Below are positions 34,247 through 64,000 of a stretch of 64,000 bases of DNA, piece after piece. The notes under the pieces are model-generated. The model searched no databases. It worked only from the letters and a program-made list of their open reading frames with translations, and was not told the DNA's origin. Position numbers and translations under genes: made by a program. Source of the stretch: Mytilus edulis. Its lineage: Eukaryota. The number at the start of each line of letters is the position of its first letter. The first letter of the stretch is position 1. Location: the NCBI RefSeq assembly GCF_963676685.1, contig NC_092344.1, positions 48,298,001 through 48,362,000 on the forward strand. The letters are read 5' to 3'.

Positions 34247-34299
34247 ATCGCGACACAACACGTTTTTTTTTGTAATTGATTGATATAAATGTCTCAAAC

Positions 34300-37390: not shown

Positions 37391-38593
37391 TCATTTTCCT
37401 GAAAGCGTATATTCAGCTTTGTAAACAGTGTAAAATGAAAGTGCAGTAATTGAAAGTATGCATATTGACAGCAAACACCAAAACGAACAGAAATCAATAG
37501 TGGACACATACTCTTTCCATGTAATGTAAATATGAGTTTCCTTTTCATCTTTCTGAATCTCCGATGATGTGTTCACACTCGTTCCTCTCTTATAGGTTAC
37601 AATGCGTTTTAGGAGACATGACGAAATAAATGTCTGTCCATTTCGAGCACAAAATCGGGATAAAATGGCTGAAAGCAACACAACCAGTGTACTTTGGAAT
37701 AGCTGCATCACTATAAATATATCCATAAAAGATATTGATTCCGAACTCTCTGGCAGAGACTGTCCAATAATAGTAAGAAACACACCGAAGGACAACCAAA
37801 CGGTTACCGTGTAACCCATGCGTTCTCCACTATCAGCAGGTATGGCAAATGTAAACAGATTCAAAATTGATAAAAGGACTAACGGCAGAACCATATTCAG
37901 CATAACATACAACGGTTTCCTCTGTAATGTGATAGAAAATATCACTAGAGATTCTTCGTGGTACTGTGCTGTACATGCTGAGGTTGAAATAACCGTCCAA
38001 ATTGTATTTTCTTTTATTGAGCGCTCCAATGCTATTCCTGACACATTTTTTATTAGAAGGGAAACATCTTTCAAACGCATACTCCAAGCTCCGAAAACAA
38101 ATTCGCAAGTTTGCCTGTCAAATGGAAAGAACGTCATTGACACTGGACAGTATGAATTAAATACTTGAAACGGTGTCCAATTGACCCTACCATCATGTTT
38201 GATTGTCGCCAATATCAAATCGGAACCGAGCTCTTTCATCCCTGTATAACTATCTTGTAAGGTTATATCCGGTTTCCATATCTCTGACTGAGGAAGGTAT
38301 ATATAGTCCAAGTCTCCATATTGTTGTCGGTTCCATGTTAGGAACTCATCATGCCAGCTTATATTAAGATATCCAATAGTCGTTAATCTTTGTTGAACTT
38401 CATCGAGTGTTATTAGTGAGTTTAATGTCAATTCAACATTTACGTAGATGGTACTCTCGTAATCTTGTACAGGTTTGGAATCTTTATCATATTCCTTTGT
38501 AAAGAATAGCTCCTTTTTCAAAGCTTTGAAATCACTTGAGTTTTGGCATAAAGAAAAACTGACAGTAGAAAACCAAATGATAAAAACAATCAT
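37391..38593 (-). CDS. intronless nicotinic acetylcholine receptor-like Cys-loop channel subunit (400 aa from ATG 38593)
   Basis: signal peptide MIVFIIWFSTVSFSLC, WKPDI, Cys-loop CPVSMTFFPFDRQTC, PADSGER, four TM segments. Confidence 0.92.
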   Translation of the reverse strand: MIVFIIWFSTVSFSLCQNSSDFKALKKELFFTKEYDKDSKPVQDYESTIYVNVELTLNSLITLDEVQQRLTTIGYLNISWHDEFLTWNRQQYGDLDYIYLPQSEIWKPDITLQDSYTGMKELGSDLILATIKHDGRVNWTPFQVFNSYCPVSMTFFPFDRQTCEFVFGAWSMRLKDVSLLIKNVSGIALERSIKENTIWTVISTSACTAQYHEESLVIFSITLQRKPLYVMLNMVLPLVLLSILNLFTFAIPADSGERMGYTVTVWLSFGVFLTIIGQSLPESSESISFMDIFIVMQLFQSTLVVLLSAILSRFCARNGQTFISSCLLKRIVTYKRGTSVNTSSEIQKDEKETHIYITWKEYVSTIDFCSFWCLLSICILSITALSFYTVYKAEYTLSGK

Positions 38594-39029
38594 CTTTAAT
38601 CGTTCCGCAATAAATTGATTATGGATAATCTTGTAGGCAACGGAATGAACCTGGAATGCAACTCTTTGGTATTTCACACTTTGAAATTGTAATTCAAAAG
38701 GATCAATATAATACTTTTCTGACTTTGTAAAAATCAATTCAAACTTTTAAAAAAATTATAATTTACAGTTTTGATCACTTTTTCATTTTGAAACATAAAA
38801 GAATAGATGCGGTTTAGCATTAGCACTTACACGGTTACGATTTCATTAACATGTGTCATTACAAATTCATATCCGACATAACTAAAACATCTCCGGTGAA
38901 TTAAATTTCAGAATTTTGAGTCCCTTTTTATAATTATACAATTTATTGTCAGGAATAATTCATCATGCTTCTTTGTTCTGTGAAGCGTGAATTGATTTCA
39001 TAAATTTAATCTCGCACGCATAACAAATA

Positions 39030-39110
39030 AATGAATAAATGCAACATTTATAGAGTGCATTATACAATAACAACAATAACTCTAAGCGCTTCACATTTAG
39101 AAAATAAATA
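39030..39110 (-). mobile_element. L2-like LINE 3' end remnant
   Basis: reverse complement gtgaagcgcttagag...ctctataaaatg..tttattcatttattt resembles L2 termini. Confidence 0.35.
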
Positions 39111-39896
39111 AAATACATAAAAACACGAAATTATATAGAATACCAAGCACCAACTTTACGAATCAAACAAGCAGATAAAAAAAATGCATGTCCTATAAGA
39201 TATACAAAACAGTCTAAAATTAATGAAAACAGTTAAAAGTACATAATAAAAAGAATAAATAATAAATCTAAAAGAAATCCTTTAAAGTAATTTTTGTTAA
39301 AACAAGAGTTCAAATTCTGTAAACGCATACTTAAACATTTGAGAGAATTTACTCACATGTTAAATTCCAGTAATTTGAAACAAATTTTTAAAACACGACC
39401 CAAGAAAACGAAAACATAATGATTAACCGTACTACTTTGAAGTCAGAAACGTGTTGTGTATCTAGAACATTATGCGTTGATTTAAACCGCCAGACCTTCT
39501 AAAAATCAGGCAAACAATCCAAACATGGTAGATAATCAGATGTATGCAGTTTATCTTGAAATCTCAACAATAAACGCTGTCAATAATATCTGAATTAACA
39601 GTTTCTTTAACTGTTTAAAAGGTATATTGGAATTAATATATAATATCATAATTAATTTACTCAATTAATACTTGTGCATTACATTTGATTGTTATATTCA
39701 CAACTGCCCGATTGGCTCTGAAAGGCATGTTTAACAAGCACGAATTAATGCTTGTTGACAAGACGTTGTTGTCAGATTTATCAAAAATATTTCATAAAAT
39801 TTTCGAGAAAAAAAATGTTACTTTATTTTAAACTTGTAAATGGACTGGCAGTGTTCATATTTAGACATAAATAGTCAACCCACACACTATTTAGGC

Positions 39897-40098
39897 GTTT
39901 CTACCTCAGGAATAGATTACCTTAGCTGTATTTGTCAAAACTTGTAGGAAATTTGGTCTCAATGCTCTTCAATTCCGTACTTTATTTGGTCTTCTCAACA
40001 TTTTTGACTCGAGCGTCACTGCTAAGTCTTTTGTAGACGAAACGCACGTCTAGCGTTAACATAAAATTTCCATCATGGTATCTATGATAAGTTTATTT
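39897..40098 (+). mobile_element. partial retrozyme-like unit with degenerate hammerhead (CTGCTAA core)
   Basis: homologous to 41190-41390. Confidence 0.75.
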
Positions 40099-40260
40099 GA
40101 AAGATCATAAAATGGCTTCATTATTTCTGTTAGTGTTTGCTATTTGTTTACAAAAAATAGACTTTCGAATAAAAACTAAACAATATGAAAAGATAAATTA
40201 CATAGCATTTAACTTTTAAAAAGGGAAATAAGAATATCGCATCAGTTTATTTTGATATGA

Positions 40261-40304
40261 GCGTCACTGATGAGTCTTATGTAGACGAAACGCGCGTCTG
40301 GCGT
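40261..40304 (+). ncRNA. minimal type I hammerhead ribozyme (intact core)
   Basis: gcgtca-CTGATGA-gtct(tatgt)agac-GAAA-c(gcgc)g-TC|tggcgt; predicted cleavage after 40298. Confidence 0.88.
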
Positions 40305-41076
40305 ACTAAATTATAATCCTGGTACCTTTGAGAACTATTTCAAATATTTGGTTTCATAATTTCTATATATAACTCGGTGTTCATTTATAAATACTGGTTT
40401 TGACTAGCTTGACATTTTTGGTTAAAACCCACACGTTGATTGAGTTTTCTCGCGTTACCTCATCTATATATCCTTCTGGAACATTGCGCCGTGCAATAAC
40501 TAACTGAAAATTCAGAAATATTTCCCTCTATTTATTATTACGATTGTTGGACAATGGTAAAACACGAGATTAATTACTGCGCTTAGGGGAAATGGTGCAT
40601 ACAAATAATTTTGATCAATATTTAAAAGTTGTCACTTTTTCAAAACAGACACGTTGCAGTTTTCGCTATGATAAATACATTGCAAATATTTCTGAACCTA
40701 CAGTTATATATTTTATCATATCGGATGTCCATAACACGAGTTAAATTTCTATCCTTCTCTACGCATCTACTTGCACAGTGTTTTGTTGCCTGAAGAAAAC
40801 GAACTTAAAACGTGATTCAAGGACATAATTTGTGGCTAACCACATCGTGACACACTTATATAACATTGCAGTTAATATATGTTCTCATATCAAATAGCAC
40901 GCATTTGAACTGTTTCCGCGGGATTATCCCATCTAATATTACTTATCTCGATTTTACAAGTGTAGCTATGTTGTCAGTTTATATTGGACATGTCGCGTTT
41001 ATTATACTGTATATTTTGTTATGCTTTTCCTCATTGCTATATTGGTTTATATAGGAATCATATCATCATATCAGCT

Positions 41077-41764
41077 TGCTGGTTGAGATTTATTTCCCCG
41101 AGGGTATCGCCAGCCCAGTAGTGCTGACTTGTGTATTCATATAATAAATAAACTGTTAACAAATCTTTGAATTTGTGAAGTACTAAGGCTTTTCTACCTC
41201 AGGAATAGATTACCTTAGCTGTGTTTGGCAACACTTTAAGGAATTTTTGGTCTTCAATGCTCTTCAATGTACTTTATTTGGCCTTTTAAACTTCTTTTAA
41301 TTCGAGCGTCACTGATGAGTCTTTTGTAGACGAAACGCGCGTCTGGTGTATATATAAAAATTTTATCCTGGTATCTATGATGAGTTTATTTGCAACCACT
41401 GGGTCGATGCCATTACTGGTGGAGATTTATTTCCCGAGGGTATCACCAGCCTAGAACCATCACCTCTAGATCTGTGTTGACTTGAGTTATCATTGATATG
41501 TTCATAATAATAAATTAACTGTTTACAAAACTTTGAAGTTTTGAAAAAACTAAGGCTTTTTTTACCTCAGGAATAGATTACCTTAGCTGTATTTGGAAAA
41601 ACTTTTAGGAATTTTTGGTCTTCAATGCTCTTCAACTTTGTACTTTATTTGGCCTTTTTTTTTAACATTTTCTGATTCGAGCGTCACTGATGAGTCTTTT
41701 GTAAACGAAACTCGCGTCTGGCATACATATAAATTTTAATCCTGGTATCTATGATAAGTTTATT
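41077..41764 (+). mobile_element. tandem retrozyme-like insertion (~2 units) with hammerheads at 41306-41349 and 41681-41724
   Basis: direct repeat; 375 nt between predicted cleavage sites 41343 and 41718; absent at the homologous site in copy A (~31280). Confidence 0.85.
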
Positions 41765-42935
41765 CTAAAAGGTATCTCTGTATGAACAGTACCGACCATT
41801 TGACATTCTGGGGGAGGACAGGAGGATTTAAGTAAAGAATATCCGAGTACAAAATGAACAGGATTAAGCCGAGCTACGCATATCCCGTCTATTAAAACTG
41901 CAAAAAAAAATCTTTACACCCCCCTTGAAAAGGCAAAACAAAGAAAATTTCCAAAATCAAATTAATGGTAGACCTGTTACGTTATCGCATAACACCGGTA
42001 TGAGAAGGACATGAAGATTTATATTTTTAGAAAAAATTAGGAAAGCATATTTAAAGCCATATTTAATGTCTTTCCCTTGCAACGTTATCGCGACACAACA
42101 CGTTTTTGTTGTTGAACATACAGATGTCTCACACAACACTTACATGTAGCTTTGAGGGTCTCGCTATAACGTTGTCTCGATAGATAACAGATGTTACTAA
42201 GTACCGATGAGTCTTTAGCCATCACGAAACATATTTGAGTTTTGTACTTCTCAACAATTAAAACTATGGTAATCAAAAGTTCAGATTTTTTCCCTGGGAT
42301 AGTCGATATACCTTTATCTAACCATTTAAGTGTCAATATAGATAAACGTCCATGATATAACTGTTTTAAAACCAGTCGACGTCAACATTTCCTTTCTGAC
42401 TAATGTGTGAACATACTACATATGTATCTAATAAAACGTACTAAAGGTTACAGGCAAGTAATTTCTAAATTAAGTCATCATTTGAAGAGGAACTGCATAC
42501 ATTGTAAGCATAACGCTTACATTTGATAGAAAATTTAATTCTTCTCATAAGTTGTTCTTTTATTATTAAGAAAAAGAATATTAGTGATTGTAATAGAAGA
42601 TAACTAGTTTATGACATATAATGAATATTGAAAAAAAAGAATACAAGAGAAACAAAAGAATAGAATTACAATGTAAAACTAACGATCAGTCATATGTACA
42701 TCATGTTTGTGCGCCAACACTGAATATTCATTACTGTAATAAAAATGTTGATTAAAGCGGTACAATACAAATAAAAATTTTAAAAAATCCAGGCTTTATT
42801 TCTACTGAATCCATCTTTTCGTATATCTTGCAGTAAAGCCACAAAAATAACAAAAAACAATAAAACCGTACAAGACTAAATTAAATGTCAGTCCCCCTTC
42901 TGGAGTACTTGCATGGTTTGTAAAAGGAATGTTGT

Positions 42936-44138
42936 TCATTTCCCTGAAAGCGTATATTCAGCTTTGTAAACAGTGTAGAATGAAAGTGCGGTTATCAATA
43001 GGATGCATATTGACAGCAAACACCAAAACAAGCAGAAATCAATAGTAGACACATACTCTTTCCATGTAATGTATATTTGAGTTTCCTTTTCATCTTTCTT
43101 AATCTCCGATGATGTGTTCACACTCTTTCCTCTCTTATAGGTTACAATGCGTTTTAGGAGACATGACGAAATAAATGTCTGTCCATTTCGAGCGATTAAT
43201 CTGGATAAAACGGCCGACAGTAACACAACCAGTGTGCTTTGGAATAGCTGCATCACTATAAATATATCCATAAAAGATATAGATTCCGAACTCTCTGGAA
43301 GAGACTGTCCAACAAGAGTAAGGAACACACCGAAGGACAACCAAACGGTTACCGTGTAACCCATCCGTTCACCACTATCAGCAGGTATGGCAAATGTAAA
43401 CAGATTCAAAAGTGTTAAAAGGACTAACGGGAGGACTAAATGCATCATAACATACAACGGTTTCCTCTGTAATGTGATAGAAAATATCACTCGAGATTCT
43501 TCATGGTACTGTGTTGCCTTTACTGAGGTTGAAACAATTGTCCAAATTGTATTTTCTTTTATTGAGCGCTCCAATGCTATTCCTGACACATTTGTTATGA
43601 GAAGGGAAATGTCGTTCATTTGCATACTCCAAGCTCCGAAAACAAATTCGCAAGTTTGCCTGTCAAATGGAAAGAACGTCATTGAGACTGGACAGTATGA
43701 ATTAAATACTTGAAACGGTGTCCAACTGACACTACCATCATGTTTTATTGTCGCCAATATCAAATCGGAACCGAGCTCTTCCATCTCTGTATAACTATCT
43801 TGTAAAGTTATATCAGGTTTCCAGATGCTTGACTGAGGAAGGTATATATAGTCCAAGTCTCCATATTGTTTTCGGTCCCATGTTAGGAACTCGTCATGCC
43901 AGCTTATATGAAGATATCCAATAGTTGTTAATCTTTGTTGAACTTCATCGAGTGTTATTAGTGAGTTTAAGGTCAATTCAACATTTACGTAGATGGTACT
44001 CTTATAATCTTTTACAGGTTTTGAATCTTTATCATATTCCTTTGTAAAGAATAGCTCCTTTTTCAAAGCTTTGAAATCACTTGAGTTTTGACATAAAGAA
44101 AAACTGACAGTAAAAAAACAAATGATAAAAACAAGCAT
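42936..44138 (-). CDS. intronless nAChR-like Cys-loop subunit, close paralog of 37391-38593 (400 aa from ATG 44138)
   Basis: same motifs and same length; near-identical protein. Confidence 0.92.
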   Translation of the reverse strand: MLVFIICFFTVSFSLCQNSSDFKALKKELFFTKEYDKDSKPVKDYKSTIYVNVELTLNSLITLDEVQQRLTTIGYLHISWHDEFLTWDRKQYGDLDYIYLPQSSIWKPDITLQDSYTEMEELGSDLILATIKHDGSVSWTPFQVFNSYCPVSMTFFPFDRQTCEFVFGAWSMQMNDISLLITNVSGIALERSIKENTIWTIVSTSVKATQYHEESRVIFSITLQRKPLYVMMHLVLPLVLLTLLNLFTFAIPADSGERMGYTVTVWLSFGVFLTLVGQSLPESSESISFMDIFIVMQLFQSTLVVLLSAVLSRLIARNGQTFISSCLLKRIVTYKRGKSVNTSSEIKKDEKETQIYITWKEYVSTIDFCLFWCLLSICILLITALSFYTVYKAEYTLSGK

Positions 44139-45590
44139 CTTTAATCCTTCCACAATAAAGTAATTATGAATAATCTTACAGGCAACGGAATAAACCTGGA
44201 ATTCAACTCTTTGATATTTCACAATTTGAAATTATGATTTAACATAATCAATAGAACACATTTCTGACATTGTGAAAATCAATAGAAAATTATTTTTTTT
44301 CAAATAGTTTTTAACACTTTTTAATTTTGAAAAACGAAAAAAATAGACCCAGCGTAGCATTCGCACTTACACTAATACGATATCATTAAAATATTTCAAT
44401 ACAACATCAGGCAGAAATAAGCCATCCCTCGTGTATTAAATTTATTATTTAAATTAAAGTGTTATCTTTTGAAAATGCAGTTAAAATTTATGAATGTTAA
44501 TTATTTTGAAGAAATACAGCGATACTCTATTTCAATTTGGATTTTTACTTTTCTACAGAAAAAATACTCTGTAAAATCGTTAAATTGATTTCAAAGAAGG
44601 AAAATTTAAACTGTCAAAAATTGTTGTTTGCCATTTCCTTGTACTCTGACGGTCTTCACGGAAAACTGGTTTGTCAGACCTACAAAAATTCTTACATATG
44701 AGAGGGGGTGAATAAACTCATCATAGATACCAGGATTGAAATTTTATATTCACGCCAGAAGCGCTTTTGATTATTTGATCTCTGAAGCGTGAAATATTTT
44801 ACCGGATCCAAAAAAGCAGTACATGAAAAATTGATCATGCTATTTTGTTGTCAGAAGCGTTAAATATTTATTGTGCATCTGTTGATTATTTATTTAGGAT
44901 TATTTATCAATTATGGACTTTGTACGACGTCAATTTGTTGTATATGGACCTGTTCAGATTATATCAACCGATTGCCAATGTGATCTAACAGGTCCATTAT
45001 AAAGCGTATTGACTAAGTGAAAGTCCTACATTTGAAAATGCCTGTACCAAGTCAGGAATATGACAGTTCTTGTCCATTTGTTTTTGATGCATTTTATTAT
45101 TTGATTTTGCCATGTGATTATGGACTTTCCGAATTGATTTTCCTCTAAGTTTAGCATTTTTGTGATTTTTACTTTTTATATATTACATATATAAATAATG
45201 TATTAGAAAATGGTGTTCAGTGTTTTTTCGGTGAATTTTTAAATCGTATTTTGCAATAATGTGTTAACATTAAAATATCATATTCTTTGAACAACTTTAT
45301 AGCTTGTTGCATTACTTTCTTGAATTCTTAGCGTCTGCATTTAAACTTGCAAACTTTCTTTTCGTCTGCTGCGGCGCTTCGTCCATGGTTGTTATGTTTG
45401 ACGTAATGACGTCATAAATCTTTTAGCAATATATTTTTTTTTATTTTGACCGTCAATATACATAGAAATAGAAAAAAGCGTCAATATCCCTTAAAATAGA
45501 AACGAGGCTTCGGATACGTAAAATAACCTGTGAAACATGTGATCGTCATCGCCAATGAAAACAATAGTATGCTACACCATATATGATATA

Positions 45591-47790
45591 AATTATAATT
45601 TGTATTTTGACTTTGTACAAATTGTAATTTGTACAAAAAGTGCCTGTACAAATTACAATTTGTACAAAATTTGATGAAAATTCACTTATAACTTGTACAA
45701 TATTTTATAATATATATTTTGGTGAAAAAGGCATTGATATATACACAACAGAATTTCTTATTAATGACCACACAATTCACCATATTTATCAAATACTAAA
45801 TTAATTCTGTATCTTTCGTTTGAGATGGCATCGGGAATGCAGCACAATATCTTTTGACTTTCACATTTTTAACCGGATTTTTGTGACAAAAATTCGGTTA
45901 TTGAATTGGGGATGTACGGCGGTTGGGCGGGCGGGCGGCAATCAATATATCAATATATTTTAATATGTTGTTACTGACAATAAAATGAAGGTCAAGTGCG
46001 ATAATGGCGATTTTGACTTTTACCGTTCAGGAGTTATGGTTCTTGAAAGATTGAAAAATGGAGTTTCCAGTCGTTTCCGTGCATTTACGTATGAACTGTT
46101 CTACCAAAGCTTCCCACATTTTAATGTGTTGTTACTGATGACAAAATGTAGGTCAAGTTCAATAATGATGATTTTGACTTTTACCGTTCAGGAGTTATGG
46201 TTCTTGAAAGATCGTAAAATGGCGTTTCCAGTCGTGTCCGTGCATTTACGCATGAACTGTTCTACGAAAGCTTCCCAAATTTTAATATGTTGTTACTGAT
46301 GACAAAATGGAGGTCAAGTTCAATAATGACGATTTAGACTTTTACCGTTCAGGAGTTATGGTTCTTGAAAGATTGAAAAATGGTGTTTCCAGTTGTGTCC
46401 TTGCATTTTCTCATGAACCATTCAACCAAAGCTTTTCAAATTTTAATATGTTGTTACTGATGACAAAATAGAGGTCAAGTTCAATAATGACGATTTTTAC
46501 TTTTACCGTTCAGGAGTTATGGTTCTTGAAAGATCGTAAAATGGTGTTTCCATTCACATTGTTGCATTTACTCACGAACCATTCAATCTTAGCTTTTCAA
46601 ATTTTAATATGTTGATACTTATGACAAAATGAAGGTCAAATTTGATATGACGATTTTCACTTCCACCAATCATCAGTAATGGTTCTTGTGATATTGCCAG
46701 GACACAAATAAATGTTAATAAATCCGGTTTGTTGTCGTTGTGACAGCCTCTTGTTACAATTAAAAGTACCCGCCTATGCATTTACATGAAAGAAACCCCT
46801 GACAACCTATTCTTTAAAGGCTGGTTAACTGCGATACATAGCGAAAGTTGAAGCCCGAGAACAGTTACTGTGAATAAAATGTGTCTTTCATAGCTTTAAT
46901 TTAACTATGAGACATAAATATCCTGTTCAAGTTTATACAGTTTTTCTGATTTGGTAATCAAAATCTCCAGATTCAACAATTACCCCTTAAATATATCGAG
47001 GACAGGTTTGGACACGATCATACTGAGGAATATGTATAATGACATTAACCCCAAACAACAAGTTATGATAGTTACAGTTACTGGTTGTTTTCTTGGTAAG
47101 ATATTAGTCTTGGGTCTATTGTCCACACAGTGCACACTTCCTTGCAAGAATGATTGGTGTTTCAATATCAGCATCGTTCCCAATTTAACTATGAACCCAT
47201 TATGCTTGTCCGTGGGGTACACATACTTCTTCTTTTGTCTATCATTCCATGTTAGGTTTATAATGTTTTGCACAAATTTCTCCTTGTGATCAACAATGCC
47301 ATCCATGTTTACACTATTACAGCAATTGAGTAAATGACTGAACATGTAAAAGAATGTAAAAAAAAATAAATTCTAGGATATAGAGCTTTACCAACTTATT
47401 AAAATAATTGACCCCAAAGTAGTTAGCTGTTGCAAAGTGTTTAAGAAGAGATAAATGTTTAAGTCAAATGATGCAATTTCTGATGCCAGAATTCAATCAC
47501 CTGCCCAAACGAATCATAAAGAACAATTTTATATTTTGTAAGTAAGATGTACTGTTTAGTCATTTAATACATGTACCAATGGTGTGTATCAATGCTTTTT
47601 TCATCAAAATCCATATTATGAATTATTGTACAAGTTATAAGTGAATTTTCGTCAAATATTGTACAAATTGTAATTTGTACAGGCACTTTTTGTACAAATT
47701 ACAATTTGTACAAAGTCAAAATACAAATTATAGTTTGTACAATTTTTTTGTACAAATTATAATTTGTACAAAATGATAACTTGTACACAA
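45591..47790. mobile_element. TIR DNA element with ~120-bp tgtacaaa-rich inverted ends, carrying a nested HINE
   Basis: 45591-45711 is the reverse complement of ~47625-47735. Confidence 0.75.
45866..46755 (+). mobile_element. HINE/DINE-like element carrying ~4.5 copies of a 161-bp satellite unit
   Basis: subTIR aaccggattt (45871) / aaatccggtt (46720), (gcgg)n microsatellite, 3' hairpin tgtc..gaca, units at 45970, 46131, 46292, 46453, 46614. Confidence 0.85.
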
Positions 47791-48770: not shown

Positions 48771-49075
48771 GGATGTTCGCTACTCTGTTTGAAAATAACA
48801 AGCATTTTAAAAGACTACTATGAAGTGATAGTATATAAATAAAGAGACTAAAAAAACAGAAAAAAATGGAGTGTCTGTGTGCTATATTTTGGGGCCAAAA
48901 AGGGGTCTTACTGAACCTACTCCTTTTGAAATATGTCGTTTTAAACTTTATGTTATAAAATTATGAAAAGAAAAGTAGGGGTTAGTGGACACATTTTTTA
49001 AATGGCAGTACATGGATAAAACCAGAGGATTCTTAAAATCTGGCAATTATTCAAAAACTAGAGGAGCAATCATCC
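48771..49075. mobile_element. TTAA-flanked MITE (Kolobok/piggyBac-type)
   Basis: ttaa-ggatg...catcc-ttaa ends. Confidence 0.45.
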
Positions 49076-49892: not shown

Positions 49893-51218
49893 ATGTTTTC
49901 GTATTTGTGCTCTATCATTATACTATTATCATTTGTACTTAATGCAAATGCTGATGAACAAAAAGAAGATGAATCGAAAAAAGAGGAATACAAACCTATA
50001 CAGGAACTTATAAAAAATGTGACAAATGGAAGAAATAAAGAGGTCAGACCTGTCAACAATTGGGACGAACCTGTTATAATTTACTTTTATTTTCATATGA
50101 CTTATATTCAGGAATTCGACGAAGTTGCCGGAAAATTAAGTTTAAACGGATATTTTGGAGTTCAGTGGAGAGACAATACTGTATCATGGGATCCTAGCGA
50201 ATATGGCGCTTCTTCCTTTACATTCAATGAAGAATTATTTTGGAAACCAACCTTTATAATGTCAAATCCATATGGAGAACAAAAAATATTATATAAAGAT
50301 GATAGTGTAAAGAGGGTGCATTACACTGGACAAATTGATTGGTTTCCAAGCGATGCATTCGATATTTCATGTCAGGCTGATGTTACAGATTATCCATTCG
50401 ATACACAAACATGTACTATAGCATTTGTTTTATCGGCATATGACGAAAAAGAGGTAATTTTATGGCCAACAGCTTTTATAACTGAGTGGTTTGTCCCACA
50501 TAAAACATGGGATTTGATTGAGACGAATCTGACTAGAATTGCTTCTCCACAGGTGGCAAATTTTCATATCAAACTGAAGAGAAAGCCTATGTTTTTTGTT
50601 TTCAACCTAATACTGCCAATAGTTCTTATGTGTATTCTTAACCCTTTTGTCTTTCTACTACCAGCAGATTCAGGTGAACGGGTTGGATTTTCCATAACAG
50701 TATTATTGGCCATTGCAGTATTTCTGACGATTTCTGCCTCTGGTCTTCCGGCAATCTCAGATCCACAAATACCAACATTATCTATTCTTTTATTTGCTGA
50801 CGTCACTTTTAGTGGCGTAATTGTTATACTAGTCATTATAAGTTTACGTTATTATCTGCGTGATGAAAATATTCCAGTTTCATATCTTGGAGAAAAATTT
50901 GTGACGATTTGTCGTGTACTAAAATGCGGTTGCTGCTGCAGGAAAGGGACGAAAGGTAAAGGTGACGAGTATGGAAACAAACATGAAAACAATGATAGTG
51001 TGGATATCAGTAAAATAAAACTTTTTGGATCGGAGTACCAGTATCGAGGAACTAATAGTGAGGAAATCAACTCTTTTACCTCCAAAGATGAAATTACATG
51101 GAAGAATGTCGGAGAAGAACTTGACTTTGTTTTTGGCACTTTAAGTGCTGTTTATATGGTAACAGCACATTTATTGTATATTCTTGGAATTGTACTAGAT
51201 TTTCCTTTATTTTCATAA
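49893..51218 (+). CDS. intronless divergent nAChR-like Cys-loop subunit (441 aa from ATG 49893)
   Basis: signal peptide, VRPV, WKPTF, Cys-loop CQADVTDYPFDTQTC, PADSGERVG, four TMs, CGCCC cluster in the M3-M4 loop. Confidence 0.92.
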   Translation: MFSYLCSIIILLSFVLNANADEQKEDESKKEEYKPIQELIKNVTNGRNKEVRPVNNWDEPVIIYFYFHMTYIQEFDEVAGKLSLNGYFGVQWRDNTVSWDPSEYGASSFTFNEELFWKPTFIMSNPYGEQKILYKDDSVKRVHYTGQIDWFPSDAFDISCQADVTDYPFDTQTCTIAFVLSAYDEKEVILWPTAFITEWFVPHKTWDLIETNLTRIASPQVANFHIKLKRKPMFFVFNLILPIVLMCILNPFVFLLPADSGERVGFSITVLLAIAVFLTISASGLPAISDPQIPTLSILLFADVTFSGVIVILVIISLRYYLRDENIPVSYLGEKFVTICRVLKCGCCCRKGTKGKGDEYGNKHENNDSVDISKIKLFGSEYQYRGTNSEEINSFTSKDEITWKNVGEELDFVFGTLSAVYMVTAHLLYILGIVLDFPLFS

Positions 51219-52105
51219 TTTGTTTATAACTAATAAATAGATAGATTAGTTATATCTGTCGGAATAGTCTACTCTTTAAGTAGGCTAGTTTACCTATCAT
51301 AATAATGACTTCACAGTTTAGCTAACAAGCAAGCTTACCAAAGATTCTACCTTTCCCTACACACTGAAAGAAATCGGCTGTAACAGAAATCGGCAGGTTT
51401 TTACTTTGTACACATCAGTTATGAAATTTAGTAAATTACTAAATAAAGAATGTCTATGCAATGCTAGCAATGAGTTACATTAACGACGATTTTAAAAATA
51501 GAAATTTATTAAAAAGAAATACAAACATGGACATATTTCAATACACTTTCGAGGGTGCGCTCAGCCATGGTGACTCATCACAAGGATTTTTATTCGGAAT
51601 TGTAATCTAAGATAGTTTAGCCGATTTTGAAGACAATTACCAGATGCATATCATAGAAATACTACAAAAGGACTGATTTGAAAATGTTAAATGTTAGAAT
51701 TTCCTTTTCTCTGTAATAAATACTTTAAGTCTGTAGGTTTTCCTGTGTATGTCTAGGCTTGATTTTTCAACACAAAACAATTATTCGTAGAAAAACAAAC
51801 AAATCAAAGTCGACAGAATCAAACAAACAAACAAGCAACTTTCATCAAACAGAACACTACTCAGAAATATAAAATCGGGCTCAACACAAACCCTGCCAGT
51901 CACTCAGGTTGAACCTTGCTTGATTTTCTTGAAGGGTATTCCGTGTTTGATCCACTTGTCTGATTTTATGAATTGTCGTGGGTGTCAGTATTCACCCCAG
52001 AAACTTACAAAACCTTTGAATAGACTTATTAAGAAGGGATATAATTACGGTACTGTTGTCAAGTCATTAAAGATTGCATATTTTGGCGTTAATATTGAGT
52101 CACTG

Positions 52106-52109
<4 letters not shown>

Positions 52110-52139
<30 letters not shown>

Positions 52140-54031
52140 AAATTTATAAAGCGCCCTATATAAAAAATAAAAAAGACGCTGTACATACACATGGTAATTA
52201 AAACATATCAATGACAATAACATAAAACATAAAAAAATACATCGTGTCAGATTCAAATACTGAAACAAAAAATGCCTACCATGAAATAAAAGGTCAATAC
52301 GAAATACATGTTAAAACAAAGAATAAAAAAAATAACAATATAGGATAAAAGCATGCAGAACAAGCAAAAACTCAATACAAAGAGTAAAAAAGCCCGTAAA
52401 AGAGAAATCAATCTAATTAAAAGCAATACGATAACAATGAGTTTTTAACTGTATTTTAAAACACTCTAGGGACTTGCATTGTCTTAAACTGTTCGGGAGA
52501 TTGTTCCATAGAGATGCCGCTACCCAATCAAATTGTCTTTCACCGTACGTCTTCGTTCTCACTTTTGGAACGGTGAGTAGTTTTGTGAAACTTGAACGCA
52601 AAGATCGGTTTGGCACGTGTAGATGGACTAGTTCCCGGAAGTAAGCAGGGCCAATGTCATTCAAAGCGCAGTACACACAAGTCAGTATTTTGTATTGTGG
52701 TCTATATTGGACGGGTAACCAATGTAAATCAGCAAGTATCGGTGTAATATGTTCATGTTTCCTTGTCCTGGTGATAAGACGAGCTGCTGTATTTTGTACT
52801 TTTTGTAATCTGTTCAATGTAGTCTTGTTGATACCGTTCAGCAGAATATTCCCATAATCAGTCTGGATGTTACTAGACTGTTCACAAGTGTTTTGCAAGC
52901 AGTTGTTGTTATGAAGTTGCGAATGCGTCCAATATTACGGATGTGAAAATGACAGGATGTTACTATGGCAGAAACTTGCCGTTCCATCGTTAGGTGTTGA
53001 TCAAAATATACACCTAGGTTTTTCACGCAGGATACACTACTTATAACAGTATTGCCGACTTTGAGTTGGAGATTTGGTACACTAGCCTTCAGATGTTTCG
53101 GTGTGAATATGATAAGTTCGGTTTTATCTTGATTCAGTTTTAACATATTTTTTGACATCCATGAACTAATGTCGGAAAGACATAGTTCAAGTTTCGAAAA
53201 ATAGTTTTCCCAGTTGTCTAGTGGCTTGATAACCATGTAAACTTGTGTGTCGTCCGCATAGCAGTGATATGTCATGCCATGGCGACGGCATATTTCACCT
53301 ATTGGCTTAGAGAAAAGACAGTACAATTTAGGGCCAAGCACGGAACCTTGTGGAACACCGAATGTTAGATGACATTTCTTCGATGTAGTTGTTCCAATCA
53401 CCACACGCTGATGTCTATTCGTCAAATACGATTTATGCCATATGAAAATGACAGACGTTCTAGAAGAATTCTGTGATCTATAACATCGAATGCAGCGGAA
53501 AGGTCCAATAGCACCAATACTACTGATGACTGTTTATCTAAAGCTGCATTGATATCATGATGTACTCTCGCTAATGCAGTTTCAGTTGAATGGCGTGGTC
53601 TGTATGCTGACTGAAGTGGATCACACAATGAGTTCGAGTCCAAATGAACATCTAGTCTCTTATCAACTACCTTTTCTAGAGTTTTCGAAATAAAGGGTAA
53701 ATTGGACACTGGTCTGTAATTTTTGTAAATTTCGGAATCAAGTCCAGGTTTTTTCAGAAGAGGTCTCACAAGAGCCTGTTTAAAGTCTGTCGGCACGATG
53801 TTCTCATCAAATGATGCATTGACGATTTCTGAAATAAGTGGCACGACAACATCGGAACACTGTTTCAAGAGGTTCGACGGAATAGGATCAAGCTCGCAGG
53901 ACTTATTCGGAGCTTTTTGAATGATAGTTCGTATCTCATCATTGGTTGTGTGTTTGAATGACAACAAAGGTGTACCAGTGAATTCAACATCAGCCTGTAG
54001 AAATGCAATGTTATCACCATTCACTACGTTT
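52110..54031 (-). mobile_element. 5'-truncated, frameshifted L2-clade LINE (reverse transcriptase)
   Basis: NYRPVSNL, LDLSAAFD, GVPQGSVLGP, YADD, HITPIL..LHWLP; gcgctttataaa + (TTA)n tail; TGATAA TSD at 52104-52109 and 54032-54037. Confidence 0.93.
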
Positions 54032-54367
54032 TGATAAGGTCTTTGCATCGGAACTAAACACATTTATTCTAAAAACAGTTGTTGGCATGACACGGGTTAT
54101 GTTCTTCTCATATGTTATGATGCTATGATACTAATCCCCTAACGGAAAGAATTGTGCCTGATGTTCATATGATGAAATCATAATCTTTCAGTCAGTTTAA
54201 TTGAAGTCTGGAGCTGGCATGTCAGTTAACTGCTAGTAGTCTGTTGTTATTTATGTATTATTGTCATTTTCTTTATTTTCTTTGGTTACATCTTCTGACA
54301 TCAGACTCGGATTTCTCTTGAACTGAATTTTAATGTGCGTATTGTTATGCGTTTACTTTACTACATT

Positions 54368-54458
54368 GGTTAGAGGTATAGGGGGAGGGTTGAGATCTCA
54401 CAAACATGTTTAACCCCGCCGCATTTTTGCGCCTGTCCCAAGTCAGGAGCCTCTGGCC
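54368..54458 (+). ncRNA. P5-type twister-like ribozyme (best-preserved copy)
   Basis: P5 ggttagaggt/gcctctggcc; P2 GGGG/CCCC; GA-GGG pairs with CCC in L4; T|AA at 54411/54412; P3 gca-tttt-tgc; P4 CCTG/CAGG; L4 TCCCAAGT. Confidence 0.75.
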
Positions 54459-55468: not shown

Positions 55469-55751
55469 TTTTTATACCCCACTTAGGGAAATTATGTTTT
55501 TCAGTCTGTGAGTTAGTCTGTTCGTCCGTCAGTCCGTCTGTCCCGCTTCAGGTTAAAGTTTCTGGTCAAGTTAATTGTTGATGAAGTTGAGGTTCAAATA
55601 ACTAGAAACTTAGTACACATGTTACCTATGATATTATCCTTTTTATTGTAATGTCAAATTAGAGTTTTTTTATCCAAATTTCACGGTCCACTAAAAAATA
55701 GAAAATGATAGTGCTAGTGGGGAATCTGTGTACTATGGACACATTCTTGTC
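55469..55751 (+). mobile_element. short HINE/DINE-like element
   Basis: subTIR ccccact/agtgggg, (gtcc/gtct)n microsatellite, 3' hairpin gtgt..acac, ttcttgt end. Confidence 0.6.
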
Positions 55752-58096: not shown

Positions 58097-58432
58097 TGTT
58101 CCGGACCATATGAGTATTTGGACCATATGCGTATACTCATATGGTCTGACCATACGCGTATGGTCCGACCGTACGCGTATGGTCGGACCATATGAGTATA
58201 ATACTCGTTTGGTTATTATTGGACGATATGAGTATTTGGACCACATAGGTTTTTTTTTAAAATTACTTTATAAAAGTTTCAATAATACAAAAACTTTATC
58301 TAAAAAACCCATGATGGTTACATGACAACGTATTATTTTCATAATTCAATTACTACATAAAAATTAAATATTGATGCCATAGTAAGTCATGACCATACGC
58401 GTATGGTCCAAATACTCATATGGTCCGGAACA
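58097..58432. mobile_element. MITE with TGT...ACA ends and 4-bp TSD (Ginger-like)
   Basis: TIR tgttccggaccatatgagtatttggaccata; TGTA duplicated at 58093-58096 and 58433-58436; internal palindromic ccatacgcgtatgg repeats. Confidence 0.85.
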
Positions 58433-58699
58433 TGTATTCTAGCGGCAATTCAGGATCTTTTATCTTCGTACTCTCACAGAACATATTGGAGAATCTTTTT
58501 TGTTTGTCTAGTGGTGCAATTGTTATTTACTATGAATGAGTATTCACAGAAATTAATGTCTCTTTAAATATGTGTCTTCTCTAAAATAAAGAAATACTAT
58601 TTATGATATCAATTGTACGACCCTCTAACCATTTGACCTATGAAGGTATTTTCACTAAAGTTACAATGTATACAATAGCTTAAACTCTCTTTTGCATTT

Positions 58700-59115
58700 T
58701 AAATTTCTGATTCTAGCGACACTGATGAGTGTATTTAGACGAAATGTCCGTATGCCATACACAAATTATCAATCTGTTATCTAGTTAGTCTTTTGTAAAA
58801 CCACTGAGTCCTCCCGTCTCCCATTGTATGATAAGCCCAGGAAACAGCACGTCTGTGTTGACATAGATCATCATTGAAATGGTAATATAAATTAGTAAAC
58901 TATTAAACAAAGCTTTGAATTGTTCGAAATACTAGGGCTTCCCTCTCTCAGGAATATATTACCATGATTACCTCAGCTGTTTAAGTGAAATCTTTCAATT
59001 AATTATTTTAAACTTAGGTCTTTCTTTTCTATTTAAGCATCACTGATAAGCCTTTTGTTGACAAAACGCATCTCTGACGTACAAAATTATAAGCTAGGAA
59101 TCTTTGATGAGTTCT
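58700..59115 (+). mobile_element. old retrozyme-like unit with two decayed hammerheads (~58716-58757, ~59037-59080)
   Basis: ctgatgagtgtatttagacgaaa and ctgataagccttttgttgacaaaac, with spacer homologous to 41350-41680. Confidence 0.7.
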
Positions 59116-60299
59116 TTTTAATAAGAGTCTATAGGCCAAGAGCTGTTGATACTGTTTTCAGATATATATTGCTTGCATATCATACAGTATAAAATTACTC
59201 TGCCATAAAGATTGCAAAAAAATAATAAATCATTAAGTCTACACGCTCGGCAACAACTAATTAAAATATCATAAAATATCATATGTATGTGGTAAAATAT
59301 GTGTTTAAATGTATGCATTCCATTCAAAAATCAAAACGTTTTCCTGTTTTTCGACATACATTTTTACAAAGTATATTGACGCAGAAGAATTGTGTGATTT
59401 GAAATAAAATAAAAAAAAGTATTTCTACAAACGGCTGGATTAATCTTTATAGTTAGAATAAAATGAATGCTATATCTAAATCTAAAGAAGTAACCTATAA
59501 CATGTATAAGGAATTCGAAAAAAACAGATTTCAGCGAATCTAAAAATCATTTTTTAATTTGCCTGAACGAAAGTAGTTTGCATGCATTGTACCTAACACA
59601 AGAGAAATTAGTCTCGGTGTTTTCAGTTACCCTGATGAAAACATTTCTATTTCTATTTTGAAATCAATATATATCTATCCAAATTTAACTGGTCTCAGTC
59701 TTATTGTTCACCGTGATCATATGAGCATATAACTTCTATCATACACAAACTTAGTTGGTTGTATGATCTGTTAGGTGTTTAAATTGATTTGAAAGGGATA
59801 ATCAATAGAGACAATGTTCACAATAAAGGCAACAGTATTATGCCGGTTGTAAAAAGTCACAAATCGATTGAGAGATAACAAAACTGGGTTACAAACTATA
59901 ACCGAAGAAAACACATAAACTTTTTGATTATAATAGTGTCATGTTTCACATTTAACTACAGCTCCCTTAAAAGCATGATGTATACTTGCCTTGGAAAATG
60001 AAATTGGGATGGGGAAATAGCAAAAAAAGTCGAATCGAATATCTTTTTATTGTTTCGGTCATTATAAGTAAAAAGAAGGGAGAAGTGTTCAGCTCTAATT
60101 TAGCTATAATATGTGTAAATCTATATTACTTTTAATTTTTGAATGCAATACTCGAATGCAACAGTATGTATTTTTTTTTAAATACACACACAGTCTGTTG
60201 CTTGCTGGGAAAAGCTATCACCTGTGAAGATCTCGGATAAGGTAGATCATTGAAATAACAAAACGTATTCAACTTTATTTAAGTTCAGTACAAAAGTTT

Positions 60300-60870
60300 C
60301 ATTTTCATGTGCATGTCTATCAATTATCAATGATGGTCAGAACAAATTAGATGAAACTTGATTTAGGAACAAAAAGAACTTTATACTTGATACGAGATGT
60401 GAACACAGGACAAAACAAAGATGTCTTACCTGTCAATAAACCTGTAAAAGTCGTTTTTTTCATATGACGTTTCTTCCTTTACTTTCAATTTATTTTGAAA
60501 AACCAAGATTTATAGGGAAACTTATGTATCTCGTTTTGGATCTCTTATTGACAATTGAAACAATGTGTATTAGATTAATTAAATCTCTTTTTTTCCTACT
60601 CCTAGCAGATTCATGTGAAAGAAATGGATTTTGAATTAGTCTGATTAGGTATTGCCGAATTTCTTACAATTGTTGCGTCTGGACCTCTAGCACTCTTAGC
60701 ACCACAGCTTTCATAATTATCTATGCTCTTTACTGACATTGAATTTAGTACCGTGTTTGATATATTAGTCATTATAAGTCTATGAATTTCCCTCCGTTAT
60801 GAAAATGTTTTGGTGTCAAATTCCGCAGAAAAATTTGTTAAATATTGTCGTGTACAAAGACTTGAAGCAA
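60300..60870 (+). pseudogene. internally deleted nAChR-like pseudogene related to 49893-51218
   Basis: LIRDVNTGQNKDVLPVNK, HMT, SSFTFN-LF*K, LLLADSCERNGF*, EKFVKYCRV segments match the neighbour; stops and frameshifts present. Confidence 0.8.
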
Positions 60871-61729
60871 AGGGAAGTAAGCTTCTTTTAATTTGCTTTA
60901 AATGGATGTAGATGTAATCCAGAGGTTGGCAATCAAAACGTCTACTACTTATATGTTATAGTTGGCTATACAGTTTTGGCCATGCTCATTGTTGAAGTCC
61001 GTACAATAACCTATAATTCTTAATTTCAGTGTCATTGATAATTGTCTCATTGGCAATCATATTACAACTCTTTTTTTTCAAACATTTGAATGAACTTTGT
61101 TTATTGTCGATTTTTGTTTAAAAGCTCATGAATAGTTTTGTCTTTTGAATTATTCCATATTATGTCATACCGAGACCTTTTAAGACTTGTCATAAGTTGT
61201 ATGTTATTTGTTTACTTGAAAACCAAATAAAGTTTGCTGATGAAACTTAAGATAAGTGCTCTTACCACTATAAAGATGTATTTCGTTTCAGAAATACCAT
61301 ATATATGTACATTGAATGCGATTGGCAGACCTAGCCACTCATGTAAATATATGATTCTAAAATCAAAACTCAATATAGTTAAATGATAAAATTTGAAATG
61401 ATTGTGCCAAGAACAGTTTTTTCAGCTCTCTTCTTTATTACCCCTGAGACAAAAAAAAAACCCAAATCATTATACAACCAAATGCATCACAGAAGATTTT
61501 TTTTTTATTTTCGATAACTCGATTAACTGGTTGTCTCTACATTAATATTGTACAATATCAGTTTTCGACACAATATAGAGCCCTATTTTTTTTATTAGTT
61601 CGCTATGATCTCTTGACATAAACTTCATATTGTGATTCGCAGCTGAATTTTTCGATATCATGCCAGCAGTATGAGTTCTTTTTTTTTATGATATTTCTCC
61701 TATTTATAATGGCTGAAACACGTATGTTA

Positions 61730-62143
61730 CTTATGGTGAAGTTGAAATCATCCCTTCGTAAATTTTACGGACGCCATCACGAGTTGGTTGACCGTTATGG
61801 AATAACCGTTTCACAAATGATATCGGATATGTTCCTTACGTCGTAACTACAATCCCCTTTCATGAATATGACCTACCGAATTAGACTATTTACCGGATTT
61901 GTAATCACTTAAGCAACACGACGGGTGCCACATGTGGAGCAGGATCTGCTTACCCTTCCGGAGCACCTGAGATCACCCCTAGTTTTTGGTGGGGTTCGTG
62001 TTGTTTATTCTTTAGTTTTCCATGTTGTGTCGTGTGTACTATTGTTTTTCTGTTTGTCTTTTTTATTTTTAGCCATGGCGTTGTCAGTTTGTTTTAGATT
62101 TATGAGTTTGACTGTCCCTTTGGTATCTTTCGTCCCTCTTTTA
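61730..62143 (+). mobile_element. 3' fragment of a retroelement (possibly Penelope-like RT C-terminus plus structured 3' region)
   Basis: MVKLKSSLRKFYGRHHELVDRYGITVSQMISDMF resembles the C-terminal helix of PLE-type RTs; class is inferred. Confidence 0.55.
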
Positions 62144-62147
62144 CTTA

Positions 62148-62620
62148 AATAAACTTATCACAGATACCAGGATTACAATTTAATTTGAGCACCAGACGCG
62201 CGTTTCGTCTGCAAAAGACTTTCGAATCAAGTGATGTTCGAATCAAAATAAGTTGAAAAGGCCAAATGAGTACGAAGTTGAAAAGCAGTTAGGATAAAAA
62301 AAAATCCTAAACGTTTTGCCAAAACAGCCAAGGTTCGGTGTTATGTCGTTGTTCTCCTCTTATATTTAATGCGTTTCCCTCGGTTTTAGTTTGTTACCCC
62401 GATTTTGTTTTTTGTCCATGGATTTATGAGTTTTGAACAGCGGTATACTACTGTTGCCTTTATTTATCTATTCCTGATGAGGTAGAAAGCCTTAGAATTT
62501 CAAAAATTCAAAGTTTTGTTAACAGCTAATTTGTAATATGACCATATCGATGATAAATAATGTCAACACAGAAGTGCTGACTACTTGGTTTGTGATACCC
62601 TCAGGAAATAAAAACTCCAC
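62148..62620 (-). mobile_element. retrozyme-like unit (hammerhead core disrupted), interrupted by another repeat at ~62335-62466
   Basis: ccagacgcgcgtttcgtct is the reverse complement of the hammerhead 3' half; remainder homologous to 41400-41764. Confidence 0.75.
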
Positions 62621-63480
62621 TTAAAGAGACGTTATATTATTGGTGTCTCCTTACTTTGTTAAAACAACTGTACCGCTGTTTTTGAATCAATATAATTAAC
62701 TGTTCAAACTTATTGGATTATTTCCCTTGCTATCGTAATTACTACATCAAACAAACAAAAAATGGAATATTGACACGAAGCAAGTATATGAACACCCCGA
62801 CAATAATAACATTATTGACGGATGTTTTGCGTTAATTGAAAAATGATGAGATGTAATTGCAACGTTAACCTTTGATTTAACAGGAAGTAGAGATGACTAT
62901 TACATAAGTATTTGCTTGTGAATGGAATATATTAATCAGCCTATACGTCTTACTTCCTTAAGAGTCTAGGTTCTGTGATAAGATTAGCACATCATAATTA
63001 ACTTTGAAATGCATTTTACCTCATTTCATACTGGATTGATTTGAAGTAGATAAATATTCTTTTTTTTTAATTGGGCCTTATTGTTATTACATCTTTTATT
63101 TGCAAATTCATATTGATTATTTCAACTTCTAGATAATCACGATTCCGAAACCAATCTTCTTTATTAGTAAAATTAATGGAGAGAAATAGAAAAGAAATAT
63201 GTCCATACTTCTTTTTATTGTTTTCGGGTAGTTAGAGTAGACATCAAAGATGCGTGATGGATACGTAAAGCATTCGGAATGACTTAAACCTAAAATTTGT
63301 TTTTGAAAAATTAATGTACCAGGATGCAACATGTTTTTCCACAACTATGTATTTCTTATTTTACTGTCTATTGATAGCTCTATTGAATAGTGTAACCACC
63401 TTTGAAATATCTAGGAAACAAAGTATTTCTATATGTATATACATTTCATGCGGAATTGAACTTGAATTCGTTAAGTAGTA

Positions 63481-64000
63481 ATGGTTTCATATGTGTGTTT
63501 AATAATAATCACATTGACATGTCTCGCATGGACAAAGGCCAATCAGCACAAGACAGATAAACCAGATTTGGACAGAAATAGGAGTGTTCATGACTTGATG
63601 CTAGAAGTGACCATAGAAAGAAACAATAAGGTATTACCTGTCAATAAATCGGGGGCACCAGTGGGCGTTTCGTCATTGAGGGTATTACCATCCCAGTAGT
63701 CAACACTTCGGTGTTGACATGAATATCAATTATGTGGTCATTTTTATAAATTTCCTGTTTACAAAACTTAGATTTTTTCGAAAATCTTAGGATTTTCTTA
63801 TCGCAGGCATAGATGATTTTAGCCGTATTTGGCACAACTTTTTGGAATTTCGAATCCTTAATGCTCTTTTACTTGTTTAGCTTTATAAGTATTTTGATAT
63901 GAGCGTCACCGATGAGTCTTATGTAGACGAAACGCGCGTCTGGCGTACTAAATTATAATCCTGATAACTTTGATAACCAGTTATTATCATTTTTATTTTA
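63481..64000 (+). pseudogene. 5' end of another nAChR-like gene, disrupted by a retrozyme-like insertion
   Basis: signal peptide, then HDLMLEVTIERNNKVLPVNKSGAPV matching QELIKNVTNGRNKEVRPVNNWDEPV; resumes as PVIII after the insertion. Confidence 0.75.
63663..63975 (+). mobile_element. retrozyme-like insertion with hammerhead at 63903-63946 (CCGATGA core variant)
   Basis: ACCAGT duplicated at 63657-63662 and 63976-63981. Confidence 0.82.

Follow-up and report, generated by a model that had tools for sequence, protein, structure and literature searches.

Maintained non-alpha nicotinic receptor-like subunits in an intron-poor gene cluster of Mytilus edulis

Three intact single-ORF genes, A, B, and C, in a 64,000-nucleotide stretch of Mytilus edulis DNA (the window) are ordinary members of the known intron-poor expansion of nAChR-like genes in bivalves. 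We propose, with moderate confidence, that they are selectively maintained non-alpha subunits, likely opened by a ligand other than acetylcholine in a remodelled inter-subunit pocket. Earlier publications already cover the family and its arrangement in intronless tandem arrays, as well as the lost acetylcholine site and the chemosensory idea; what was measured here is the contrast in evolutionary rate between pocket and pore and a gene C lineage that lacks the loop B Trp.

Gene A (37391-38593, minus strand) and its tandem duplicate gene B (42936-44138, minus strand) each encode 400 residues, with 90% amino acid identity. Gene A sits in a duplication unit of about 2 kb (36903-38908, minus strand), and a second copy of this unit, at 42456-44443, has 87% DNA identity to it. 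Gene C (49893-51218, plus strand) encodes 441 residues, belongs to a second subfamily, and is 28% identical to A and B. Two decayed C-type copies follow on the plus strand. The first, psi1 (60390-60881), retains only C nucleotides 118-167, 309-336, and 691-1030, with stops, a frameshift, and large deletions. The second, psi2, starts with a 5' part extending from the signal peptide to the first strand (63481-63662), is interrupted by an unstranded interspersed repeat of about 310 bp (63663-63974) that has eight further local copies or part-copies, and resumes with many stops and frameshifts from 63975 to 65046, about 1 kb beyond the window end. C nucleotides 176-182 align on both sides of the repeat, possibly marking a target-site duplication. 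The receptor cluster continues past the window: gene D (contig positions 48374061-48375392), which is intact and 73% identical to C, lies after psi2, 12 kb beyond the window. Between C and psi1 there is also a fragmented reverse-transcriptase element (52413-54063, minus strand; RVT_1 E ~1e-13), which is likely non-LTR and is separate from the receptor genes.

Broken copies thus make up two of the six at the locus, the other four (A, B, C, and D) being intact. The original prediction of three intact single-exon genes, at least two broken copies, and birth-and-death turnover is borne out, with local copy gain in A/B and C/D and decay in psi1 and psi2. Its picture of one cluster is correct for turnover but not for descent: A/B and C/D fall in separate, distant deep clades (quick tree; FastTree), and the cluster is therefore not one local tandem expansion.

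Genes A, B, and C match Pfam Neur_chan_LBD (PF02931) with E-values of 1e-32 to 1e-45, and Neur_chan_memb (PF02932) is matched as well. A ligand-binding domain with a 13-residue Cys-loop, together with four transmembrane helices, identifies them as nAChR-like members of the Cys-loop pentameric ligand-gated ion channel family. An AF2 model of gene C (pLDDT 85.6) matches nAChR structures at Z 29-32, reaching Z 31.0 with alpha7 (rmsd 6.1, 353 aligned), and on this model gene C is predicted to have the Cys-loop fold. Genes A, B, C, and D all carry SGER and a 9' Leu, with Glu at −1' and no Pro at −2', and a cation-type pore is predicted for all four from these residues. The vicinal Cys-Cys is absent from loop C of the same four genes. 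The loop A Tyr position (Y93) is Gln in A and B and Ser in C; the loop B Trp (W149) is present in A and B and is Ser in C; and the Y198 position is Glu, Glu, and Pro in A, B, and C, respectively. None of the three has the complete principal aromatic set of an alpha subunit (Y93, W149, Y190, Y198). Loop B and the pre-M1 Arg lie 55 residues apart in A and B and 49 in C, compared with 59 in a fish alpha3. The M3-M4 loop spans 47 residues in A and B and 85 in C, against a family median of 50 and 147 in a canonical beta1-like subunit. Everything that had been read from these motifs (an intact Cys-loop, the cation-type GER with 9' Leu, loss of the Cys-Cys and of the loop A Tyr, no loop B Trp in C, and a shortened loop C) stands, except that the supposedly short M3-M4 loops are a property of A and B and not of C.

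How unusual are these genes within their own genome? Among 89 sampled single-ORF paralogues, C included, none has the vicinal Cys-Cys and only two keep the loop A Tyr; these losses are the rule across the subfamily and do not set the cluster apart. The one uncommon residue loss is that of the loop B Trp, missing from nine of the 89, C among them. Genome searches returned 95 and 104 scored matches, and at least 88 such genes are spread over many clades. Tandem arrays and many paralogues were found, and all named matches in the searches for relatives are bivalve. The exact gene A protein is present in NCBI/UniRef, both M. trossulus and M. galloprovincialis have orthologues of it, gene B is 99% identical to M. 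edulis P0001, gene C has orthologues in three other Mytilus species, and intact orthologues overall span four Mytilus species. As had been noted in advance, large intronless nAChR expansions in bivalves, arranged in tandem arrays with lineage-specific turnover, were described by Jiao et al. (2019; PMC6896357), who count 33 alpha subunits among 132 nAChR-like genes of C. gigas, 13 of them with a full principal site. The present genes resemble that expansion in their intronless tandem arrays, their turnover, and the lack of alpha cysteines in most members, and differ in that Mytilus is not among the species of that paper, which does not describe this cluster (PMC6896357).

Gene C is transcribed unspliced across its coding sequence. 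Among the matches listed, its sequence occurs in at least 20 runs from nine studies, the run kinds being guessed, none of them RNA on record, and their tissues being given as codes. In both contig runs, gene C is a single gap-free 1.4-kb contig, with no contig on the unique flanks; gap-free RNA-type contigs cover nearly all of the coding sequence, and raw RNA reads over the ORF have a single orientation in two of two runs. Single ORFs and these contigs agree with the predicted intronless coding sequence. Genes A and B gave no reads in one raw RNA run and scattered low-depth pieces in two of three contig runs; since these four runs were chosen by gene C, the near-blank result is not evidence that A and B are silent.

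The genes are under purifying selection, with dN/dS of 0.30 for A/B (dS 0.17) and 0.15 for C/D. Within a non-redundant subset of 53 paralogues the pore is strongly conserved (E−1' in 50, T6' in 49, L9' in all 53), and median entropy rises from 1.88 bits in M1-M3 to 2.64 in the extracellular domain and 3.34 at 14 pocket positions. Similarly, pooling 19 of the 22 pairs of close paralogues gives a dN/dS of 0.82 for complementary-facing positions and 0.81 for loop C, compared with 0.20 for inward-facing positions of the same strands and 0.19 for M1-M3; the M3-M4 loop gives 0.64. No site class lies above 1, and the pocket-facing intervals (0.48-1.18 and 0.53-1.13) include 1; a sign test for the pocket across paralogue pairs gives 16 of 22 (p=0.052). 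Between A and B, 12 of 22 counted extracellular-domain differences fall in loops B-F (p=0.028, with borders drawn after the alignment was seen), and no such loop enrichment appears between C and D (p=1.0). The C lineage has its own derived complementary face: relatives with as little as 55% extracellular identity keep it at 6-8 of the 8 positions scored, even though the loop B Trp is gone.

We propose that A, B, and C would form pentameric cation channels, perhaps assembling with other members of the family, in which a ligand at the orthosteric site between subunits would cause cation influx in a peripheral tissue such as gill, where the family is expressed in other bivalves. The ligand may be endogenous or waterborne. 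A conserved pore joined to a variable pocket argues for a ligand other than acetylcholine, and diverse ligands have been proposed for the bivalve expansion, in which family-level gill expression and expression in the early embryo before acetylcholine synthesis are also reported (PMC6896357). Several points count against this reading. Near-neutral rates would equally be expected if an unused pocket had come under relaxed constraint. The comparable annelid channel Alpo4 of Alvinella pompejana (PDB 8bx5), likewise lophotrochozoan, without the vicinal Cys-Cys, and with a proposed non-acetylcholine ligand, stayed an orphan after wide screening; unlike in the mussel genes, its aromatic box is largely intact (W159, Y199, Y205, W65) (PMC10338036). 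The gene C model scores Z 24.2 with Alpo4 and 31.0 with alpha7.

It is possible, if less probable, that A, B, and C are instead accessory non-alpha subunits that co-assemble with Cys-Cys alpha subunits and tune the kinetics, permeability, or toxin sensitivity of acetylcholine channels. All of the losses described so far sit on the principal face, and Torpedo gamma in our alignment has the same three (vicinal Cys-Cys, loop A Tyr, and loop B Trp); other non-alpha subunits (beta, delta, and mollusc beta1-like) share the missing Cys-Cys and the cation filter. Partners exist: the Cys-Cys is found in 24 of the 30 best alpha-like loci of this mussel genome. In A, B, and C, loop D has a Tyr in place of Trp; this residue is still aromatic, so that a complementary role beside an alpha subunit is possible, and A and B keep the loop B Trp. 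Near-neutral pocket evolution suits an unused site, and oyster gill is rich in both AChE and nAChRs (PMC6896357). The mussel genes differ from known non-alpha subunits in their replaced loop D Trp (kept in 2 of the 53 paralogues and retained in fish alpha3 and octopus beta1-like), in an identity of only ~25-30%, and, for A and B, in the short M3-M4 loop. Against the accessory reading, the family forms a clade apart from canonical alpha3, alpha6, beta, and beta1 references (FastTree, with a reference set lacking alpha7- and alpha9-type subunits), at least 88 genes in many clades would seem excessive for accessory use, and the C lineage conserves pocket residues of its own.

A narrow form of the ligand reading holds that these genes are dedicated environmental chemoreceptors, convergent with the chemotactile receptors (CRs) of cephalopods, in sensory cells of the foot, mantle edge, larval apical organ, or gill. 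We consider this unlikely. Like CRT1 and CRB1 (PDB 9e6b, 8eiz), the mussel genes are nAChR-derived and have a fast-evolving pocket, in the mussel family beside a conserved pore, and they share with CRs a genomic syndrome of clustered, intronless genes with altered acetylcholine residues (PMC13174522, PMC9068888). CR pockets are reported to be under diversifying selection where cephalopod nAChR pockets are conserved (10.1101/2025.10.28.685082). The 'CR-like' clade of MolluscaGenes includes bivalves (PMC13174522). CRs, in contrast, have proven ligands and sucker expression. Vertebrate nAChRs score above octopus or squid CRs in both sequence and fold (132 bits for alpha7 against 105 for CRB1; for the gene C model, Z 31.0 against 22.2 and 21.8 for CRB1 and CRT1), and CR structures are missing both from the top 60 matches of gene A and of the family profile and from the 50 fold-search entries listed. 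Such similarity argues against membership of the CR clade, and any likeness would likely be convergent. Loop E pocket residues in A and B are polar, unlike the aromatic cage of CRT1, at positions that we take to be equivalent. Pocket dN/dS is ~0.8 with no class above 1, and family expression is also reported for gonad, for embryo, and under infection (PMC6896357). Of the predicted sensing of non-acetylcholine environmental ligands, then, the non-acetylcholine part is plausible and the chemosensory part stays a hypothesis: the losses are the subfamily default and mark a subunit as non-alpha. An extension, which we regard as doubtful, is a mussel repertoire of ~100 or more nAChR-derived chemoreceptors, independent of cephalopod CRs, with clades tuned to different waterborne or surface cues; if it were true, the cues would be biofilm, algal, or predator metabolites, and the Trp-less C/D lineage, which would combine a conserved complementary face of its own with broad expression, would be a first candidate for de-orphaning.

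Least probable is that the products are not ligand-gated in practice (pH- or ion-gated, signalling without conduction, or serving as decoys or toxin-binders) and that copy number is mostly drift, for although turnover is high, with two of six copies broken, the pocket is near neutral, and in pearl oyster a larger share of intron-poor copies is silent (31% versus 7.5%; PMC6896357), the filter, gate, and Cys-loop are strongly conserved and intact orthologues persist in four Mytilus species.

The chemosensory hypothesis for divergent molluscan nAChRs has already been stated (PMC13174522), so this locus alone adds little to it. The literature searched, which covered few subscription journals, yielded no study of function for any non-alpha nAChR-like channel of a bivalve. 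If some members of the large bivalve repertoire sense the environment, this would matter for larval settlement, feeding, and fouling. Two pairs could serve as test genes: the close pair A/B, which differs in its pocket loops, and the expressed pair C/D, without the loop B Trp. Finally, we note that loop C of gene A contains a lone Cys; Ser occupies this position in the orthologues of M. galloprovincialis and of another M. edulis assembly, and the Cys is therefore not a remnant of the vicinal pair.

What do the intact nAChR-like genes of this cluster encode? Three single-ORF subunits, gene A (37391-38593, minus strand; 400 aa), gene B (42936-44138, minus strand; 400 aa) and gene C (49893-51218, plus strand; 441 aa), each carry both the ligand-binding and the transmembrane Pfam domain of neurotransmitter-gated channels. 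Two decayed C-type copies follow: psi1, in three remnant pieces (60390-60881), and psi2 (63481-63662 and, on the far side of a ~310-bp repeat insertion, 63975-65046), which overruns the window end. The original prediction of three intact single-exon subunits and at least two broken ones was thus a real and accurate observation, and all of the motifs that it named in the intact genes are found in alignments; its short M3-M4 loops hold for A and B (47 aa) and fail for C (85 aa). One further intact copy, gene D (G000:C1:48374061-48375392), lies within 60 kb downstream of the window and is 73% identical to C. The A and B proteins are 90% identical, both genes lying inside a 2-kb duplication (87% DNA identity), and C shares 28% identity with them. 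The birth-and-death turnover that had been proposed is seen in a young A/B pair (dS 0.17; dN/dS 0.30), an older C/D pair (dS about 1; dN/dS 0.15) and the two dead C-type copies.

The cluster is a sample of the genome's large non-alpha set, and its losses of binding residues are not special to it. From genome searches with C (95 of 336 candidates scored) and A (104 of 408), which gave overlapping lists, 80 stretches were sampled with stop-free matches favoured, a sample biased to A and C relatives. With the window and its flank they gave 89 ORFs of at least 300 aa, one of them canonical beta1-like; one stretch yielded none. We take the position numbering to be the alpha7/Torpedo convention, placed on these genes through alignments. 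The Cys-loop is present in 89/89 ORFs, the vicinal Cys-Cys of loop C in 0/89, the loop A Tyr in two, Tyr198 in 14 and the loop B Trp in 80, being absent in nine; loop D has Trp in 11, Tyr in 29 and Phe in 14. Two sets of database homologues were cut by a length filter from 80 to 77 and from 120 to 104, of which 76 and 102 were scored; the vicinal Cys-Cys occurs in 0/76 and 0/102 and the loop B Trp in 72/76 and 58/102. A control search of the genome with a fish alpha3 recovered other loci, with Cys-Cys in 24 of the best 30; the genome thus has an alpha-type set in addition to the large non-alpha one. The sole uncommon loss is that of the loop B Trp in C, which is common to D, to orthologues in other Mytilus species and to two relatives at 55% identity. 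Large intronless expansions in bivalves, as the original prediction stated, are described by Jiao et al. (2019, PMC6896357), who report 99-217 nAChR genes in five species, intronless tandem arrays, and just 33 alpha-type genes among 132 in C. gigas. The cluster genes are uncharacterised additions to an already known family, and the exact A, B, C and D proteins are already present in NCBI/UniRef.

We propose, as the best explanation and with about an even chance of being right, that A, B and C are orphan cation-channel subunits likely opened by a ligand other than acetylcholine. The AF2 model of C (pLDDT 85.6; alignment of 74 sequences) predicts a standard Cys-loop subunit. Among 53 paralogues below 60% identity the pore is conserved (E-1' in 50, T6' in 49, L9' in all 53), and median entropy is 3.34 bits at 14 pocket positions versus 2.64 for the extracellular domain. 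Pooled over 19 of 22 close pairs, three being left out for saturation, dN/dS is 0.82 (0.48-1.18) at complementary-facing sites, 0.81 (0.53-1.13) in loop C, 0.51 in loops A/B, 0.20 at inward-facing sites of the same strands, 0.36 in the remaining domain, 0.19 in M1-M3 and 0.64 in the M3-M4 loop; a sign test on the close pairs gave 16/22 (p=0.052). A and B differ at 12 of 62 loop positions versus 10 of the other 128 domain positions (p=0.028, with loop borders set post hoc), and the same test on C/D found no excess of loop differences. A fast pocket with a fixed pore would fit ligand diversification and an unused pocket equally well. In the C lineage, 6-8 of 8 complementary-face residues are retained in relatives at 55-92% domain identity, which may count, if only suggestively, against an unused pocket.

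A possible reading, which we hold to be clearly less probable, is that these proteins are accessory subunits of acetylcholine channels. All of the losses originally listed sit on the principal face; the gamma chain of Torpedo, a component of an acetylcholine-gated channel, likewise has no vicinal Cys-Cys, loop A Tyr or loop B Trp; the loop D Tyr is kept in A, B and C; and alpha-type partners are present in the genome. Loss of the acetylcholine site alone is therefore no proof of a new ligand. The non-acetylcholine-ligand reading has a narrower version, in which the genes are dedicated environmental chemoreceptors; this is unlikely.

Similarity scores, which are not phylogeny, give no sign that these genes belong to the cephalopod chemotactile receptors (CRs). 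The bit score of gene C is 132 with alpha7 and 105 with squid CRB1, and no CR is among the best 60 matches of A or of the family profile, where 5-HT3A does rank. Likewise, with fold Z partly a product of aligned length, the C model gives Z 31.0 against alpha7 (rmsd 6.1, 353 aligned), 24.2 against Alpo4, 22.2 against CRB1 (rmsd 3.2, 310 aligned) and 21.8 against CRT1 (rmsd 3.0, 284 aligned). Alpo4 is described as a still orphan annelid relative lacking Cys-Cys (PMC10338036), and CR pocket data are found in 10.1101/2025.10.28.685082, 10.1101/2025.03.03.641191 and PMC9068888. MolluscaGenes describes divergent nAChR clades with changed binding residues and a CR-like clade with bivalve members, and suggests a role in ionotropic chemosensation (PMC13174522); diverse ligands for bivalve nAChRs are a hypothesis in PMC6896357, which also reports expression highest in gill and earlier than acetylcholine synthesis.

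For the canonical side of the phylogeny originally suggested, a FastTree of 297 rows, whose references were fish alpha3/alpha6/beta and invertebrate beta1-like proteins, sets all family members apart from these references (support 0.99). In an IQ-TREE quick search of the 89 ORFs, the genes that group with A/B lie on contigs C12, C14, C3 and C10, those that group with C/D on contig C2. The host is M. edulis: B is 99% identical to a known M. edulis protein, and a paralogue on contig C7 is 100% identical to another entry from this species. M. trossulus, M. galloprovincialis and M. coruscus also have cluster members. In the last of these the A/B and C types apparently share one scaffold, and the composite cluster is therefore probably older than the split from that species.

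Gene C sequence occurs in 20 runs among those listed, from nine studies, none recorded as RNA and with tissues coded. In both of two contig runs a single gap-free 1.4-kb piece spans the CDS, with unique flanks bare; both of two raw RNA runs gave few reads on the ORF, all of the same orientation, as expected of sense transcription if the library is of the usual stranded type. For A/B, two runs were blank (one of raw RNA, one of contigs), and two further contig runs had scattered low-depth pieces; all four were picked by gene C, so the blanks are no sign of A/B silence.

Finally, we note other features. Clustered alpha-type loci, mostly on contig C4 (L087-L116; loop C Cys-Cys in 24/30, many with divergent M2), form a second, apparently intron-containing expansion alongside the non-alpha one. 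A canonical beta1-like subunit (L078, G000:C7:23935-23937 kb) is one 545-aa ORF, apparently an intronless copy of a conserved gene, and a related locus at C4:52.2 Mb also has a long ORF. A single 545-aa ORF at 23084-24721 (plus) shows a weak match to the B-box zinc finger (E 5e-4, short of the Pfam cut-off), together with a probable coiled coil and a propeller-like C-terminal part; we take it to resemble bivalve TRIM/NHL-like single-exon genes. The 139-aa ORF at 18703-19122 (minus), with no Pfam match, looks like an unrelated gene's coding exon. Near G000:C1 ~48391.3 kb (L003:9288-10000 into L004), a 250-aa ORF with no Pfam match at E 0.1 starts like a signal peptide and contains two internal repeats rich in Cys. 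Two ORFs that resemble reverse transcriptase and belong to a single element family (L002, ext 79180-80094; L004, ext 100164-100952, in window-plus-flank coordinates) have a related 3' piece at 51791-52201. A degenerate 20/30-bp minisatellite block is present as two near-identical ~1.34-kb tandem copies (31576-33980), and further arrays have 97-bp (34292-35154), 161-bp (45957-46688) and 26-bp (21394-21972) units.
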